Of a DNA stretch of 58,909 bases, positions 51,001-57,000 are shown piece by piece. The stretch spans positions 1 to 58,909 of the forward strand of contig JBHHTW010000012.1 in NCBI GenBank assembly GCA_046861385.1, in the 5' to 3' direction. The stretch comes from Fidelibacterota bacterium. GTDB lineage: Bacteria > Fidelibacterota > Marinisomatia > Marinisomatales > TCS55. Numbering within the stretch: position 1 is the stretch's first letter; the number at the start of each line of letters is the position of its first letter. The position numbers are program-made.

Positions 51001-54000
51001 TGACCATCGATCATGGCGTGAACAACATCCGGTTTCATATAGTCCAATAGACGCTGATAATGGGTAATTGCAAGAATAGCTCGATCACTGCTTCGATATT
51101 GGTTGACTCCGTTTGCGATAATTTTAAGAGCATCAATATCAAGCCCGGAATCTGTTTCATCCAAGATGGCAAATGCTGGCTCCAAGGTAATCAACTGGAG
51201 GATTTCATTGCGTTTTTTTTCACCACCGGAAAAACCATCATTTACTGCACGACTCAAATAGCTTTCATCCATTTCAACCAATTTTATTTTTTCCTTAATA
51301 AGCGATAGAAAATCCATAGCGTCCAATTCATTTTCTCCCCTTGCTTTTCTTCGGGCGTTCAGGGCTGCTTTCAAAAAGTAGGTATTATTAACTCCCGGGA
51401 TAACGACCGGATATTGGAAGGACATAAAAATTCCTGCAAGCGCTCGTTCCTCCGGCGTTTTATCCAGTATGCTTTCGCCGTTGAATAATATTTCACCTGT
51501 GATTTCATAACCTTCTTTTCCGGAAATAACATGAGCCAGTGTGCTTTTCCCGGATCCATTCCGTCCCATAATGGCGTGAAGCTCACCTGCGTTGATAGTC
51601 AGAGTTATTCCTTTGATGATTTCTTTATTTTCTATACTAACGTGTAAATTTTTGATTTTTAGCATGATTGTTATTATGTAATTATGTAAAACGTAATTAT
51701 GTAATAGCGCAACATATGTGTTTAATCCTCGTTGTTTAATATTGGAGCATCATGTATTCCAGTTATATAATCTTCTGTCTTTTCATTTACAGAATAATTG
51801 CGTTGATCTGGAACCATCGTGAGCAAAAGCTTAATTATTTCTGTAAGAACTAAAAATCGGTGTTCAATTATTTCATTTTCAAGAATATGACGTCCTTTGT
51901 AATACCAATCTCTTGCTTCTCTTGAAGAACCAAGCGCATATTCATAGTATCGGGCACGGTTTTTCCCTGTCCCCATGGAATACCCTTCTGCTATGTTTGA
52001 ACTTATTGAGCCAATTGCTCGATATAATTGATTTGAAATACTTTTTGTTCTCCCGTCTTTAAATAAAGTAGAAATATCATTCCAGCCAATGTCGCCAAGA
52101 AATAAACTCAATCGATAAACTTTCATTTTCCATAATGAGTCTTCTTTAATCGCATTTGGAACACTTTTATCCCAATCTTCATATTTAATAAAACTCAAAA
52201 CATTACCCTGCTAATTACGTTTTAAATAATTACGTTTTACATATTTACCCATTATCCAACAGCCCCTTCCAGACTCACTTCCATCAATTTTTGTGCTTCC
52301 ACGGCAAATTCCATGGGAAGTTCTTTAAATACCTCTTTGCAGAAACCATTAACAATGAGGGATACGGCATCTTCTGTAGAGATACCTCTTTGGTTGCAAT
52401 AATAAATCTGGTCTTCGCCGATGGATGATGTGGATGCTTCGTGTTCCATTTGGGCGCTTGGATTCCGGACGTCAATGTATGGAAATGTATGTGCGCCGCA
52501 TTTATCACCGATAAGCATAGAATCACACTGTGAATAGTTCCGGGCATGGTCGGCGTTTTTCAAAATCTTGACACCACCGCGATAGGTCTGTTGACCTTTC
52601 CCGGCAGAAATCCCTTTGGAGATAATGGTGCTTTTGGTGTTTTTCCCAATGTGAATCATTTTTGTTCCAGTGTCCGCTTGTTGAAAATTATTAGTCAGTG
52701 CAACGGAATAGAATTCACCCACAGAATTATCACCTTTTAGTATGCATGACGGATATTTCCATGTGATTGCAGACCCGGTTTCTACTTGAGTCCATGAAAT
52801 CTTGGAGTTTTCTTCCAGGCAGATTCCCCGTTTGGTTACAAAATTGTAAATACCACCTTTCCCTGTTTCCGGGTCTCCAGGATACCAGTTTTGAACTGTA
52901 GAATATTTAATAGTTGCATTTTGGTGGGCAACTAATTCCACCACAGCAGCATGAAGTTGATTTTCATCTCTCATCGGCGCTGTACAACCTTCCAGATAGC
53001 TGACATAGCTTCCTTCATCTGCAATGATAAGTGTCCTCTCAAATTGACCGGTGCTGGCGGCATTAATTCGAAAGTAGGTTGAAAGCTCCATGGGACAATG
53101 TACATCTTTGGGGATATAGACAAAGCTGCCGTCGGTAAAAACTGCCGCATTGAGAGCTGCAAAAAAATTGTCGGTATGTGGCACAACCGAACCTAAATAT
53201 TTTTTTACCAAATCAGGGTGATTTTGCACTGCTTCTGAAAAAGGGCAAAAAATGATCCCATGTTTTTCCAATTCATCTTTGAAAGTGGTCGCCACAGATA
53301 CTGAGTCGAATACAGCGTCTACCGCGACGCCCGAGAGCATTTTCTGTTCTTCCAACGGAATACCCAACTTGGTGTAAGTATCTAAAATTTCAGAATCTAC
53401 TTCATCCAGACTTTTTAGTTTCTTCTTTTTTGGAGCAGAATAATAGCTGATGGCTTGGTAATCTATGGAGGGATAATTCACTTTTGCCCATGTGGGTTCT
53501 TGCATGTCGAGCCATTGTCTGTAAGATTTTAATCGCCATTCCAGCATGAATTCCGGTTCATTTTTTATAGCTGATATTGTACGAATCACATCTTCGTTTA
53601 ACCCTGGTGGAAGGGTATCCTGCTCTATATCTGTAACAAAACCGTACTTATAATCCTGTTCGATGGCTTTTTCGATTACATCGGACATGGTTTTATCTTT
53701 TTATCCACGAACCACACAAATTTACACGAATAGTTTTAAAGGAATAGAAGCAGTGATTCAATGATGAGTTTTTTACATTAGTGATTATTCGTGTCATTTG
53801 TGGACTTATTACTTTTTTGTTATTAGATAGAAAAACTGGTTCCGCAACCACAGGTTCTGTTGGCGTTGGGATTATTAAGTTTGAATCCGCCATTGAGCAT
53901 ATCATCTGAAAAATCAATTTCCAGCCCTTTTAAATATAACCAACTTTTCAAATCGCAATAAATGGTTAGCCCATTTTGTTCGATAACTTTGTCCATTTCA

Positions 54001-57000
54001 CCTTGTTGTTTTTCAAATGACATTATGTAATTCATTCCGGAACATCCACCGCCTTCAACCCCCATCCTTAATGCCCAACCTTCTTTATTTTCCATTTTCA
54101 TGGTGTTTTTTATCCGTTCGACCGCTTTGGAAGTAACCGAAATAGTTGAATTGGCAAATTCTTCTAACGGTTCTAGTGTTTTATTTTCCATTTTATTCCC
54201 ATTCGTTGGTTGAATTTTCTACTTGAACTTTTGTCGGTGCAAATCCCAATTTTTCTTTGGCAGTATCCGTCATCATAGTCGGTTCCCAGGGTGGATCAAA
54301 TGTTACTTTTACTGTCGTTTCATCGACTCCGGTTAAACTGGATACTTTTGTTTTAATATCCTCTGCCATGTACTGGGCCATTCCACAGCCTGGGGTGGTG
54401 AGAGACATGGTTATATTTACATTACTATCATCGATTCTTATATCATAGATGAGTCCCAAATTCCAAAGATCCACTGGGATTTCTGGATCATAGCATTGTT
54501 TTAAAACTTTAATAATTTGATCTTTATCTATCACCATAAAACCTCATTGAGTTATTTCACCCACAGACATGTTTTCAAACATGTTTCGCATATTATCATT
54601 AATTTTTTTGATTGGGGAACGAATGTTGCATGCAGAAATCTGTGTACAGTCTGAGTCAAAATAGCAATCCATAAGCCCTAATGGGCCTTCGATTTTCTCA
54701 AAAAATTCAATCATGTTGATGTTTTCCAATTTGGTATTGATTTTATACCCGCCGTTGGGACCTTGTACAGCATTTACAATACCGCCCCGAGCCATTAACT
54801 GAAGTGTTTTAGCCAATAGTTCCAGAGGAATATCATACATTTCTGCAATTTCTTTAGTACTGGTCACTTCAAGCGGTTCTTTGCTCTGCATGTGCCGTAG
54901 AGCAATGAGAGCATATTCGACTTTACGTGTAAGTTTAAGCATGTGTTAATCCGATCAAATTAGTCGTATAAATTTAATGCTCGAATATTTACAGCACAAG
55001 ATATAATTCAGACTAATTTGGTCGGGTATAAAATAGAAAGTTTTTGAAAAACTAATTTTGGGGAGTATTTATCATATCGCTATAATAATCCCATAGCTCA
55101 TCCATTTCCCTGGCGTGATCGATTTTCAACTGTTTCATGAATAGGGCATTATTAATGGCAATTCCACCTAACTCGGCAATGGCAGTCATGAATTCGATTT
55201 CCTGGCTGGAGAATTCACGTATCTCATTTTTGAATAAACGTAGTACTCCGATAACGTCATCTTTAAATATAATGGGGATGGACAGCAGTGCTTTGAATCC
55301 CTCATTTTTACAAGCTTCCGGGTACTGAAGCTGGTCATCAAAACTAATATCGGGTATAATTACTGGTTCTCTGGTTGTCAATGCTCGTGGCATACTGCGG
55401 TCAGCGAAGACAGGTCCCTTGTCAATAAAATCCTGACTGACGTTAAGATGGGCAATAATTTCCAGTTTATTTTCGGTTTTATTCCACAGGCTGATAACCC
55501 CAGCGCTCAGTTCCAAAAATTCAACTGCATTTTCCAATATTAAATTGAGTACTTTCTTTAATTTGTGAGTCGAACTGATGGCTTTGCTGATGTTGACAAA
55601 CGCCCGGAAATAATCATGATTTTTCTCTAACATATTGTTGACTCCTTTTTTAATATATAAAGATTTATTGGTAGGTATTTACAAAGGTTCAAGGTTCAGG
55701 GTTGTTTTTCTTTCTCATAACTAAGCAAGTAATTGATAAAACCGCGAATGGCACCGCGGGTTCGTCCGGTATGATCATAAACATTCTGAAACTCAGATTT
55801 TGTTATGTATTGTTGATCCTTTGCCACATACAATTCACTCTGAACTTCTGTGCAGGATCGTTTTGCATACCGAAGAAATCGAATAAACTCCGGGTTTGTC
55901 TCCGAATCGAATCCTTCCGCTATATTGTGCATAGAGGAACCCGCCGCATCCTGAATTTGTCGCTTTAATCCAAAGTCGCGGGAAAAATCAGCCTTCTTTG
56001 TCATACTATAAACCTTGCGAGTTAGCGCCCGAGCTAATTGCCATGCTTCAATATCCTCAAATCGATTTATTCTCATAACTTCTCCTCTAATATCTCACGA
56101 ATCAATGCCTCATATTTTCAGTGAACCCTGAACTCTGAACCTTGAACCCTAAACTTGTGAACGGTAACATTTAGTGTACAAAAGGTTTCTTGGGCTTCTT
56201 TTTATCTCTGCGAATACTGTTGCTATTACATTTTGGACATGTCCGTTCAATAGGAACTAACTTATCGAATGGACCACGGTATTCGTTTCCGCAGCGCATA
56301 CATATATAATCAATCTCTTCCATGAGAAAAGCTCCTTATGCTATTGCTGTTATTAGGACTGTAAAATAGTAACCTTCACATCTTGACTTGCTCTTTTGCT
56401 TATTTTCCTCGTTATAAAAGTATTAAATAAACTGTGGCTATTTGCAACTTTTATGCCTTGAAAATAAACAAAATACCTTCGTCAATTTTGTAAATGTTAC
56501 TATCTTACACTCCTATTGGAATATTTTTTATCGATTCTTTCTTCTTTGCTTTTTTCTGCTTTTTTGCTTCTAATTTTTCTCGGTCTTCCTTTAATACTTT
56601 CATGGTGTGTTCAATTTCCTCTTGGGTCACCTGGGATCTCATTTTTTCCAGGTCTTTCATCGTATTCGCCCATTTTTGTCCTTGTGCAGCGCTGATCCAT
56701 TCCAGTTGCAAACGTTCGGGACGAATACCAAGACGTTCCATTTTGTCCCAGAGTTTATCCACACGTTTCACTGTCCACCGATTGGCATCAATATAGTGGC
56801 AGTCAGCAAAATGGCATCCACTGACCAATAAAATGGGTGCGCCTTTCTCAAATGCATGTAGAACGAATTTGGAATCGACACGTCCACTACACATCGTTTT
56901 AATTACTCTCTGGGAAGTTGAGTACTGCATCCGCGATAATCCAGCTAGATCAGCAGCACCGTAAGAGCACCAATTGCAGGCAAAAACAACAACTTTTTCA

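Follow-up and report, generated by a model that had tools for sequence, protein, structure and literature searches.

The window analyzed here, a stretch of 58,909 nucleotides from a Fidelibacterota bacterium, contains two genes of the PF05635 family, each lodged in the spacer between two genes of the same orientation (Table 1). Cassette 1 separates sufB from sufC, and cassette 2 a zinc-ribbon ORF from a GAF-domain gene. The profile match is the weaker for cassette 1 (E=1.9e-12, 47.8 bits, cut-off 33.8) and the stronger for cassette 2 (E=1.1e-28, 100 bits).

Table 1. Coordinates of the two cassettes and of their host genes in the window.
Feature	Position	Strand	Remarks
Cassette 1, approximate extent	51678..52248	-	outer ends of the inverted repeat
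Cassette 1 ORF, 158 aa	51722..52198	-	TTG start; PF05635 and TIGR02436 matches
Cassette 1 5' arm	52199..52251	-	GTAAATATGTAAAACGTAATTATTTAAAACGTAATTA on gene strand; fills the spacer after sufB
Cassette 1 3' arm	51666..51721	-	…TTACATAATTACGTTTTACATAATTAC on gene strand; reaches the sufC start codon
sufB, upstream host gene	52252..53688	-	SUFBD_core, 2e-77
sufC, downstream host gene	50928..51665	-	ABC_tran
Cassette 2, complete mini-element, 498 bp	55671..56168	-	ends read directly and compared with clade ends
Cassette 2 terminal inverted repeat, gene's 5' side	56157-56168		+ strand coordinates; starts GTTACCGTTCAC...
Cassette 2 3' terminus	55671-55680		+ strand coordinates; ends ...AAATACCTAC
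Target-site duplication, gene's 5' side	56169..56176	.	atttagtg on + strand; 7/8 match to the other copy
Target-site duplication, gene's 3' side	55663..55670	.	atttattg on + strand
Cassette 2 ORF, 126 aa, predicted four-helix bundle	55696..56076	-	PF05635 and TIGR02436 matches
Cassette 2 5' arm	56122..56154	-	4.7 copies of the 7-nt unit GGTTCAN (gene strand)
Cassette 2 3' arm	55684..55703	-	2.9 copies of the complementary unit NTGAACC (gene strand)
Cassette 2 leader, 5' array to start codon	56077..56121	-	clade-conserved ...AAAAT.TGA....TTGATTCGTGA...; AGGAG ribosome-binding site
Zinc-ribbon ORF, upstream host gene	56171..56323	-	
GAF-domain gene, downstream host gene	55052..55633	-	

Complementary arrays around PF05635 genes

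The arms of cassette 1 (51678-51699 and 52212-52233) are 95% complementary over 22 nt, and a wider 40-nt pair is 80% complementary. Those of cassette 2 (55684-55703 and 56124-56143) reach 90% over 20 nt, with a second 18-nt pair at 94%. The 3' arm of cassette 2 overlaps the stop codon of its ORF. In a preliminary description these flanks had been regarded as inverted arrays of 7-nt repeats. Cassette 2 indeed shows a tandem period of 7 at 55684-55703 and 56122-56154, whereas in cassette 1 the periods are 8 (51669-51705) and 15 (52212-52248), so that the term heptanucleotide is only approximate there.

A repeated profile search of the genome returned the ten PF05635 matches counted previously, nine of them over the cut-off. 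Flank complementarity was compared with that of 669 control ORFs (median 15, 95th percentile 20); the C45 copy, which lies at a contig end, was left out. None of the nine cassettes for which both flanks could be measured falls below the 95th percentile; six exceed it, and four reach the 99th percentile. Arm autocorrelation is 0.38-0.41 at lag 7 and 0.35 at lag 14, as compared to 0.28 at all lags in control flanks, which reproduces the earlier lag-7 figures (0.38 versus 0.28). The pattern had also been claimed for relatives, and 16 of their 24 cassettes score at least 20, in a run with 130-nt flanks that makes these scores only roughly comparable with the controls. Complementary flanks are common to the nine measurable cassettes of this genome, to its relatives and to more than 10 phyla, nearly all of the sequences being MAG or metagenome contigs. 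The observation itself, PF05635 ORFs within complementary arrays of approximately 7-nt period, is confirmed.

Could these genes simply adjoin a common type of microsatellite by accident? Tandem arrays in this genome most often have a period of 7, with 63 such arrays of at least 2.8 copies. Moreover, of the 105 arrays of period 7, 14 or 21, only 11 are accompanied within 1.3 kb by a complementary partner that exceeds the 99th percentile of the null, and the other 94 lack one, in keeping with the earlier remark that arrays are a wider spacer feature. Such a generic origin is nevertheless contradicted by the control percentiles in nine of nine cassettes, by the pairing of protein and unit that recurs across more than 10 phyla and by empty sites that are entirely array-free, and we consider it very improbable.

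Termini and target sites of the cassettes

The cassette 2 site is empty in seven relatives with the zinc-ribbon-GAF pair (spacer 35-65 nt, no arrays) and in an X5 run contig that joins 55639 to 56180. The octamers flanking cassette 2 agree at 7/8 positions. The octamer 5' of the gene and the stop codon of the zinc-ribbon ORF overlap; the last three residues of that ORF, FVH, are unlike those of its relatives, where the stop lies three codons earlier. Among 94 ORF-bearing cassettes, 13 combine an 8-bp duplication (at most one mismatch) with a terminal repeat of at least 10/12, as opposed to 3 of 465 mispaired flanks; 12 of the 13 were read as real, all in the cassette 2 clade. When metagenomes were scanned for the 19-nt terminus of this clade, 37 elements with both ends were recovered. 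Their flanking octamers are identical (8/8) in 13 and agree at 7/8 or better in 17, the corresponding counts for mispaired controls being 0/192 and 2/192.

The left terminus of the clade reads GTAACCGTTCAC(R)GGTTCA… and the right one …GTGAACG(C/G)(C/T)TAC. A difference between the two ends, GTAACCG versus GTAAGCG or GTAGGCG, is conserved, and with ends read as GTAACCG… and …CGCTTAC a constant mismatch results. Another MAG (L089) has a second copy of cassette 2 at an unrelated locus, with 92.5% nucleotide identity over 464 nt, intact ends and flanking octamers that agree at 7/8. The protein has 80 relatives at 71-91% amino-acid identity, whose record titles span more than 10 phyla. At least two units stand on both sides at 47 of 78 clade loci with usable flanks and upstream only at 23, the 3' arm often being a single unit. 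The leader persists in L211, an 82-bp derivative that has no ORF.

IS66 terminal repeats begin GTAAGCG, and 8-bp direct repeats are made, according to the relevant passages of PMC11946415 and PMC12888890. An IS66-family IS encoding a DDE transposase has exactly the 19-nt terminus of the cassette 2 clade. This IS, in L218, has the left end GTAACCGTTCACGGGTTCA and the right end …ACCCGTCAACGGTTAC, and its 488-aa ORF matches PF03050 (DDE_Tnp_IS66) at 1.4e-26; in L225, a transposase 94% identical to that of L218 adjoins the same terminus. The transposase is present on only 2 of 80 contigs bearing the terminus and was not found in the genome under study (97.85% complete). Among 31 relatives it occurs in 2, versus 21 with PF05635, and there is no co-occurrence as the data stand. 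IS copies are often unassembled in MAGs. The ends of the window copy of cassette 2 are degenerate (GTTACCG… and …TAAATACCTAC), and its mobility may therefore have been lost.

Cassette 1, with units of the TAAAACGTAATTA type, occurs in 7 of 28 genomes with adjacent sufB and sufC (that of the window, G000, counted). In 18 of the 28, same-genus genomes among them, the spacer is 0-80 nt long and array-free. The phylogeny of the cassette conflicts with that of the flanking host genes, and its structure is mosaic. Its dS is 0.67 for G000-G022 and 0.48 for G004-G022, with sufB and sufC saturated, and 1.28 for the same-genus pair G000-G001; nucleotide identity between G004 and G022 is 0.90-0.98 within the cassette and 0.5-0.75 in its flanks. 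The arms recur in G000 as 13-14 hairpins devoid of an ORF, and hairpins of this type are also found on contigs of the source metagenome and X5. Within the order, 21 of 151 genomes contain a 15-mer from the arm, at up to 17 copies, and the reversed control of this 15-mer is present at most once. A target duplication was sought for cassette 1 and none was found. Likewise, 0 of 51 cassettes of other clades showed a duplication or defined terminus (k=7-9), with none in the clade of cassette 1. Candidates at k=6 were rejected because they reflect an internal palindrome.

We propose that PF05635 genes are probably the cargo of small (about 0.5-0.6 kb) non-autonomous DNA transposons, or mobile insertion cassettes. 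The complementary flanks would be the terminal inverted repeats of the element, and the 7-nt arrays their inner part, tandemly reiterated. An L218-type IS66 transposase acting in trans would move the cassette 2 clade together with many ORF-less, MITE-like derivatives.

Reading frames, protein and transcript

Of 74 cassettes with two neighbors, 62 are oriented '++', none '--', six '+-' and six '-+'. The earlier statement that seven of seven cassettes are co-oriented with both neighbors holds for six; at C20 a 97-aa ORF, a crude ORF call, lies on the opposite strand. No promoter-like site was found in the 5' arm of either window cassette. The dN/dS of the cassette 2 ORF is about 0.10 relative to clade members, and the cassette 1 ORF has a dN of 0.06-0.19 and a dS of 0.5-1.8 relative to orthologous cassettes. 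Such rates (dN/dS about 0.1) show that purifying selection acts on PF05635 ORFs. The bias in orientation (62 to 0), the 5' arms with no promoter-like site and these ratios suggest that the ORF lacks a promoter, that it depends for expression on read-through of host operon transcription and is retained by selection, and that unexpressed copies would decay to ORF-less arms.

The model of the cassette 2 protein (pLDDT 95.6) matches the folds of 2GSC, 2RLD and Avd (4DWL) best, the last with a TM-score of 0.85 (normalised by the target's length) and an rmsd of 2.0 Å at about 6% sequence identity. Avd belongs to diversity-generating retroelements, and the likeness raises the question whether the cassettes are retroelements of this or another kind, with an Avd-like protein, a reverse transcriptase and arms that serve as retro-homing signals. 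Apart from the four-helix-bundle fold, little favors this: the PF05635 sequence profile does not reach Avd, no template or variable repeat is present here, no reverse transcriptase adjoins any cassette read, and target duplications of 8 bp are in line with a DDE transposase. For this genome the idea is contradicted by the absence of RVT_1 matches anywhere in G000, and we regard it as extremely improbable.

In a REPtron, REP sequences flank a RAYT gene, which encodes a Y1 HUH transposase, and REPINs are dispersed. The cassettes resemble it in that inverted copies of a short repeat enclose a small gene, the repeat is specific to the gene clade, and it is dispersed in intergenic spacers as hairpin-forming units. 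By analogy, a PF05635 pentamer might bind its own arrays, as DNA or RNA, as an end-recognition, mobility or regulatory factor; protein clade and unit would then co-evolve, and the ORF-less hairpins would be dispersed targets. Every protein clade does have its own unit (GGTTCAN; ACGTAAA / ACGTGAA / GCGTAAT; TGGTAGA / GGTAACT; AAGGNNA; others), close paralogues have units in common (C96 with C89, C45 with C76), and the 7-nt period is kept despite sequence change. The protein remains under strong purifying selection while moving between phyla, 2GSC and 2RLD contain five chains each, and Avd is a member of an RNA-protein complex with the reverse transcriptase of its retroelement (4DWL, 8UB7). However, arms and ORF inherited as a unit would match in the same way without any binding, PDDEXK_3, DUF559 and Y1_Tnp ORFs in G000 are likewise framed by inverted repeats, and the mobility of one clade would already be covered by an IS66 transposase. 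Unlike RAYT, the PF05635 protein is a four-helix bundle without a known catalytic motif, and the repeats are tandem 7-mers in cassettes that move between phyla. We consider this alternative possible but somewhat unlikely.

Why, then, do the arms remain complementary? The preliminary description placed each ORF in the loop of a stem, like an rRNA intervening sequence within an operon. Since the ORFs are sense to the operon, a single transcript should contain both arms. In MFE and centroid folds of both window cassettes the arms pair; the closing stems measure about 23 bp and 14 bp, and the z-scores are -2.8 and -1.95. By these predictions an RNA stem can form in the operon transcript. A stronger version holds that the stem itself is selected, with RNase III, which the genome encodes, excising the PF05635 mRNA from the polycistronic transcript, in the way that an intervening sequence is removed from pre-23S rRNA. 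It gains from the folds and the sense orientation, from arm segments altered on both sides at some loci (e.g. L147, L148) and from the homologous Coxiella intervening sequence, where RNase III cuts inside a terminal stem of 28 bp with heptameric repeats in it (PMC4990558, in part). Against it, non-Watson-Crick arm positions in 58 cassettes comprise 68 G·U and 75 A·C (binomial p=0.62), no excess of the former, and the constant left/right difference keeps a mismatch. A 14-bp stem, as in cassette 2, is short for an RNase III substrate, the 3' arm is often a single unit, and target duplications with an IS partner account for inverted ends without a role for RNA. Selection for such a stem thus appears unlikely. 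The 8-bp duplications, the conserved difference between ends, the terminus common to an IS66-family IS, the array-free empty sites and the parity of G·U and A·C point instead to DNA-level transposon ends. The earlier interpretation is partly supported, in its anatomical analogy.

Relation to known elements

Intervening sequences with an S23p (PF05635) ORF are described in 23S rRNA of Leptospira, Coxiella, Brucella and Xanthomonas, with tandem GACAGAT heptamers (2-3 copies) adjoining the ORF in Coxiella (PMC4990558, in part). On these passages, they share with the cassettes the protein family, an ORF sense to the host transcript between stem-capable terminal inverted repeats, tandem heptamers by the ORF, a sporadic distribution and signs of horizontal transfer, and an old suggestion that they are transposon-like fits the present elements. 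Unlike them, the cassettes lie in mRNA operon spacers rather than in helix 9, 25 or 45 of 23S rRNA, have heptamer arrays on both sides, and show target-site duplications and an IS66-family partner. RNase III excision has been demonstrated for the rRNA elements and would be a possibility for the cassettes; the cassette ORF is under purifying selection, whereas that of Coxiella is reported as decaying (PMC4990558, in part). The anatomical likeness is sound, and given the same protein family, the ORF between inverted termini and the tandem heptamers, homology probably lies behind it. In an operon transcript the two ends would pair into a stem enclosing the ORF, the geometry that RNase III cuts in 23S rRNA, and S23p-ORF intervening sequences would by this analogy be rDNA-resident members of the element class. 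Our reading of the window loci is that they are IS66-type mobile insertion cassettes, corresponding to rRNA intervening-sequence elements, lodged between operon genes.

With single-ORF IS66 elements and their derivatives (MITEs, mobile insertion cassettes), the cassettes share the terminal start GTAA(G/C)CG, 8-bp target duplications, abundant short ORF-less forms and a passenger gene between IS ends without a transposase. They differ in the expansion of their inner ends to tandem arrays of 7-nt units, which are not among the features of IS66 ends described in the literature passages covered. Furthermore, they invariably carry a PF05635 gene, which is conserved across phyla and has the sense orientation of the host operon. 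The transposase was not found in most of the carrier genomes searched, and in other PF05635 clades the units are unrelated and no duplication could be demonstrated.

Intergenic heptamer arrays are known from Cyanobacteria, Bacteroidota and some Gammaproteobacteria, such as cyanobacterial STRR, TAACTGA (PMC4679880) and GGGAATC / GGGGA(C/T)T (PMC4692102), insofar as these sources were covered. As described there they are direct repeats only, with no link to PF05635, inverted pairs or transposon ends: the text of PMC4679880 does not mention 'intervening sequence', 'S23' or 'four helix', and the passages of PMC4692102 on flanks, complementarity, hairpins, hypothetical proteins, intergenic sites and transposition draw no connection to PF05635, inverted pairs or transposon ends. 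In these same passages they resemble the present arrays in their 7-nt period, in their intergenic position, mostly between co-oriented genes, and in a copy number that changes in steps of 7.

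Two PF05635 genes and their flanking arrays

PF05635 is a very widespread protein family without an assigned function, known mainly as the open reading frame (ORF) of rRNA intervening sequences (IVSs) and, distantly, as Avd. How do its members come to lie in the spacers of protein-coding genes? The suf operon and its neighbouring genes occupy the minus strand of the window and enclose two such ORFs, each of which we call a cassette together with its arms, the complementary repeat arrays on either side. Both ORFs belong to the family: cassette 1 scores 47.8 bits and cassette 2 100 bits with the PF05635 HMM (curated cut-off 33.8). 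With TIGR02436, 'four helix bundle protein' (cut-off 24), the scores are 53.8 and 95.7 bits, in the same order. Neither protein matches any defence family in PADLOC, and Rfam returns nothing in 51300-56500 at E up to 1.

Window features at the two PF05635 cassettes
Feature	Position	Strand	Remark
sufC	50928..51665	-	
Cassette 1 ORF, 158 aa	51722..52198	-	between sufB and sufC
sufB	52252..53688	-	
GAF-domain gene	55052..55633	-	
Cassette 2, window copy	55671-56168	-	ends somewhat degenerate: GTTACCG… / GTAGGTA…
Cassette 2 ORF, 126 aa	55696..56076	-	between zinc-ribbon ORF and GAF-domain gene
Zinc-ribbon ORF, 50 aa	56171..56323	-	

The predicted structure of the cassette 2 protein (pLDDT 95.6) has four helices and superposes best on XCC0516 (2GSC, TM 0.88-0.93) and BT_0352 (2RLD, TM 0.80-0.86; target-length normalised). 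For this protein only, a four-helix-bundle fold like that of 2GSC and 2RLD is thus predicted. The superposition on Avd of the Bordetella phage diversity-generating retroelement (DGR; 4DWL) is weaker, with a TM of 0.85 by target length and 6% identity, and the sequence profile reaches 2GSC and 2RLD only. A DGR requires an adjacent reverse transcriptase together with a pair of template and variable repeats; the genome has no RVT_1 match, and a DGR is therefore excluded. Five chains are present in each of the entries 2GSC and 2RLD, and a homopentamer is cited in PMC4990558.

The preliminary description had embedded these genes in inverted heptanucleotide arrays. Complementary flanks are indeed present: at cassette 1 one pair of 22 nt is 95% complementary and one of 40 nt 80%, and at cassette 2 the two pairs measure 20 nt (90%) and 18 nt (94%). 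The heptamer period is clean in cassette 2, but in cassette 1 periods of 8 and 15 are called instead. Ten PF05635 matches were recovered in the genome, as stated before, nine of them above the cut-off and most with arrays visible by eye. Flank complementarity was scored as the best local complement between 120 nt upstream and 120 nt downstream, with 669 similar-sized ORFs as controls: none of the 9 measurable cassettes falls below the control 95th percentile, 6 lie above that mark and 4 are at the 99th or higher. At lag 7 the arms have an autocorrelation of 0.38-0.41, and control flanks one of 0.28.

Arrays are also, as had been noted, a wider feature of spacers. A strict search found a complementary partner for just 11 of 105 period-7/14/21 arrays, so most arrays are not paired, and the notion that every array is a hairpin was dropped. 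Many contigs of the genome start or stop within heptamer arrays (C15:1-75, C42:1-45, C48:13-53, C75:1-26, C86:1-26, C96:3-71 and C97:19-49); the arrays thus fragment the assembly, and its PF05635 and array counts are lower bounds. The G-rich 5' arm was considered as an orientation signal and rejected: an inverted repeat reads alike from either strand, and the G-richness shows merely that ends read inward are G-rich. One locus in another genome (L066, G005:C33:13348-16671) has three PF05635 matches within 2 kb, interleaved, by eye, with nucleotidyltransferase/HEPN-like ORFs and a NusG/UpxY-like ORF; one of the three departs from the usual G-rich polarity in that its 5' arm is rich in C.

Insertion, ends and proposed transposase partner of cassette 2

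Cassette 2 is inserted DNA that shows the marks of a transposon. Seven relatives with the zinc-ribbon-GAF pair have the empty site, a spacer of 35-65 nt without arrays; in an unrelated marine run, too, one contig skips the cassette, running from 55639 directly to 56180. The octamers flanking it, 55663-55670 and 56169-56176, are equal at 7 of 8 positions. Another Neomarinimicrobiota MAG has, at a locus unrelated to this one, a copy with 92.5% identity over 464 nt (dS 0.12), whose ends are intact and whose flanking octamers also match at 7/8.

Relatives of the cassette 2 protein at 71-91% identity were found in 80 loci. Their titles name Neomarinimicrobiota, many Desulfobacterota, Verrucomicrobiota, Kiritimatiellia, Nitrospirota and Cloacimonadota, and further Planctomycetota, Chloroflexota, Acidobacteriota, Thermotogota, Fibrobacter and Methylomirabilota. 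In this clade, which we call the GGTTCA clade, 47 of the 78 loci with usable flanks have at least two GGTTCA-type units upstream and at least two TGAACC-type units downstream; the remainder reach two units upstream only (23), downstream only (5) or on neither side (3). Many loci have exact termini in common, of one type (5' GTAACCGTTCAC(R)GGTTCA… / …GTGAACG(C/G)(C/T)TAC 3') or a second (GTAACTACTCAGG… / …CCTGAGTAGTTAC). Read inward, the right end takes the form GTAAGCGTTCAC at 6 of 11 loci, and the other 5 have GTAGGCG or a different variant; GTAGGCGTTCAC is an alternative form. The left end is mostly GTAACCGTTCAC, and this left/right difference is conserved across loci. Directly outside termini matching at 10 or more of 12 positions, an 8-bp direct repeat (at most one mismatch) flanks 13 of 94 ORF-bearing cassettes, compared with 3 of 465 mispaired flanks. 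One of the 13, L134, was read as an array artefact. The clade thereby has the make-up of a MITE or mobile insertion cassette (MIC): it is short, ends in inverted repeats, duplicates its target, and carries a passenger gene and no transposase.

Which transposase could move such an element? IS66-family elements have 20-30-bp terminal repeats starting GTAAGCG (PMC11946415) and make 8-bp direct repeats (PMC11946415, PMC12888890). The GGTTCA clade has IS66-like ends, degenerate in the window copy, and 8-bp target-site duplications as in that family, 7/8 in the window copy. The cassettes code for the PF05635 ORF alone and not for the DDE_Tnp_IS66 transposase (TnpC) of that family, so they are at most non-autonomous IS66 derivatives.

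A metagenome scan for the 19-nt left terminus matched at least 120 stretches, and the matches listed contain 84 occurrences in 80 loci. Among these listed matches the terminus-bearing elements are mostly ORF-less and 50-940 bp long, with PF05635 ORF fragments in only 4. Where both ends and flanks are available among them, the flanking octamers are a perfect 8/8 in 13 of 37 elements (mispaired pairs, 0/192) and 7/8 or better in 17 of 37 (mispaired pairs, 2/192). An 82-bp element, L211, retains the leader that precedes the PF05635 start codon and is therefore a deletion derivative.

The same 19-nt terminus opens an element of about 1.55 kb (L218) that ends …ACCCGTCAACGGTTAC and contains a 488-aa ORF matching DDE_Tnp_IS66 at 1.4e-26; a transposase 94% identical to it lies beside the same terminus at a further locus, L225. 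A putative autonomous IS66-family partner with a cassette-type terminus thus exists. On account of the IS66-like ends, the 8-bp duplications and the L218/L225 IS, we read the GGTTCA cassettes as non-autonomous IS66-family derivatives with a cargo gene. Against this reading stands the distribution of the transposase, which was not found in the genome under study and occurs in only 2 of 31 relatives although 21 of the 31 have PF05635. The ends of the IS66 copy in one relative (G001) show no inverted repeat resembling any cassette arm, and the copy in G405 has just GTAAGCGT in common with the cassette end. The L218 IS is itself nested: it has inserted where a second IS66-type transposase ORF, a truncated one, ends (L218:1-819), and no clear 8-bp duplication was seen around it.

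By crude ORF calls, and with 11 of the loci at the single site sufB-sufC, neighbours could be called on both sides of 74 cassettes: 62 are co-oriented with both, 12 lie at convergent or divergent junctions, and none is antisense between co-oriented genes. A scan for sigma-70-like sites found none in the 5' arm of either window cassette, and dN/dS of the PF05635 ORFs is about 0.10. The simplest reading would be that the ORF, without its own promoter, is expressed through operon read-through and kept by selection, while copies that are not expressed would decay into ORF-less arms.

Cassette 1 and the sufB-sufC spacer

Cassette 1 is also exchangeable. Among 28 genomes with adjacent sufB and sufC, 7 have a PF05635 cassette with TAAAACGTAATTA-type arms in the spacer: G000 (the genome under study), G004, G001 (with an in-frame TAG), G002 (decayed), G013, G022 and G024. 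In 18 others, same-genus members included, the spacer is 0-80 nt long and array-free. A same-genus relative (L015 in G003) has a 134-nt ORF-less hairpin of CACAGAG units there, L021 in G009 a 243-aa ORF with, by eye, the look of a SAM-methyltransferase, and one genome a spacer of 275 nt. The sufB-sufC spacer seems to be a repeated landing site.

Between members of different families, whose sufB/sufC dS is saturated, cassette 1 dS is 0.67 (G000-G022) and 0.48 (G004-G022); in the same-genus pair G000-G001 it is 1.28. Sliding identity between G004 and G022 is 0.90-0.98 within the cassette and 0.5-0.75 in the flanks, and the comparison of G000 with G001 gives a mosaic. The clade of this cassette (at least 54% identity) was found in 17 genomes out of 401 sampled from the phylum; 11 of its 20 loci are at sufB-sufC and 9 elsewhere, all with ACGTAAA / ACGTGAA / GCGTAAT-type arms. 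The genome also has 13-14 ORF-less hairpins of cassette 1 arms, each with a unique loop, and contigs from the source sample, like those from another study, show these hairpins as 'joints'. A 15-mer of the arm is present in 21 of 151 genomes of the order, in up to 17 copies.

Inverted repeats and a patchy distribution are thus MITE-like features of cassette 1. A target duplication was found neither for its clade nor, at k=7-9, for any of the 51 cassettes outside the GGTTCA clade, and by eye none flanks the ORF-less TAAAACG hairpins of the genome. Six k=6 matches outside the GGTTCA clade proved to be an internal palindrome, TAATTA.

The 3' arm of cassette 1 stands where empty-site relatives have an AGGAAA-containing spacer; within it, just upstream of sufC, lies a weak sigma-70-like site (9/12; 51696-51724, minus strand). 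Between sufB and the Fe-S assembly gene upstream of it, the spacer holds an ORF-less inverted repeat (53719-53799) with 14-nt arms, 86% complementary and 53 nt apart. Its units are of the CACGAAT / ATTCGTG type, and similar ones flank the PF05635 gene on contig C20.

Stems, rRNA intervening sequences and related cassettes

The idea that rRNA IVSs might be mobile dates from the early 1990s and is still a suggestion. Earlier proposals, as reported in PMC4990558, took them for transposon remnants or mobile elements. The Coxiella IVS has an S23p ORF, a 28-bp terminal stem cleaved by RNase III, and 2-3 tandem GACAGAT heptamers ahead of the ORF (PMC4990558). The window cassettes are likewise bounded by terminal inverted repeats that, by complementarity and predicted folds, could form an enclosing stem, and the genome has rnc, the gene for RNase III, which excises IVSs post-transcriptionally without re-ligation; whereas an IVS lies inside a 23S or 16S rRNA gene and is transcribed in the rRNA precursor, both window cassettes lie between protein-coding genes.

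Is the stem, then, what is selected? Each ORF had been placed in the loop of a potential stem, and the arms do pair in the predicted folds of both cassettes, but no RNA-level selection signal accompanies the pairing: across 58 cassettes, the best alignments of the arms contain 68 G·U and 75 A·C among their non-Watson-Crick positions. A search of sequencing runs for 50900-56400 turned up no RNA run, and every run compared consisted of DNA contigs. The conserved end difference of the GGTTCA clade leaves a fixed mismatch, and 3' arms are often a single unit. The predicted RNA stem is thus probably a physical consequence of transposon ends.

The PF05635 members outside rRNA genes studied here carry the hallmarks of transposition: their ends are defined, 8-bp stretches are duplicated, relatives have empty sites, and an IS66-family IS offers an autonomous partner. 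They also have IVS anatomy. They offer a concrete, testable origin for ORF-bearing IVSs, and some of the enigmatic heptamer arrays between genes may have arisen from them. One could speculate, although we consider the whole of this joint reading rather doubtful, that PF05635 pentamers encoded by the elements recognize their own heptamer arrays by sequence, each subunit reading one 7-nt unit. They would define a large, phylum-spanning superfamily of promoter-less mini-transposons in operons and rRNA genes; intergenic heptamer arrays (STRR, TAACTGA, GGGAATC etc.) would largely be their arms or footprints, and ORF-bearing IVSs members that landed in rDNA. Transposase, ends and small conserved cargo protein together define an experimental system with which to probe the role of the four-helix bundle. 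For annotators, such arrays break MAG assemblies, and operon-spacer hairpins can be transposon remnants.

Intergenic heptamer direct repeats are described in PMC4679880 and PMC4692102, in passages that draw no link to PF05635; the supplementary lists of genes beside heptamer arrays in both papers might include PF05635 genes. A literature search, with most subscription journals outside its scope, found no paper tying non-rRNA PF05635 genes to inverted heptamer arrays or IS66. In a REPtron the bracketed gene is a RAYT, a Y1 HUH transposase, whereas here it is PF05635, the only family that the cassette ORFs matched in the profile search.

Isolates have comparable loci. Among the control genomes, Bacteroides thetaiotaomicron likewise gave a PF05635 match. 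AAGGTTC-type arrays lie on both sides of a PF05635 gene in Riemerella (L182; NZ_CP081938.1, locus 1079-1881), and GGGAAAA-type arrays on both sides of one on a Nostoc ATCC 53789 plasmid; at the copy on plasmid gamma of Nostoc PCC 7120 the arrays are not complementary. The Riemerella cassette comes after an iron-sulfur cluster assembly accessory gene, which echoes the suf context of the window.

The three top-scoring control ORFs of the complementarity test are themselves small, selfish-looking genes in inverted repeats. One is a Y1_Tnp gene, RAYT-like, with strong repeats of its own (C73:37821-38384), the second a DUF559 gene in strong repeats (C72:151377-151751) and the third a PDDEXK_3 gene. 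Short inverted repeats, GCCGCAGA… / …TCTGCGGC, frame three PDDEXK_3 (PF13366) genes (C82:2546-2992, C62:1921-2301 and C10:18816-19241), and the one on C82 also has CACAGAG-type heptamers; the genes of this second small-ORF family look similar to the cassettes.
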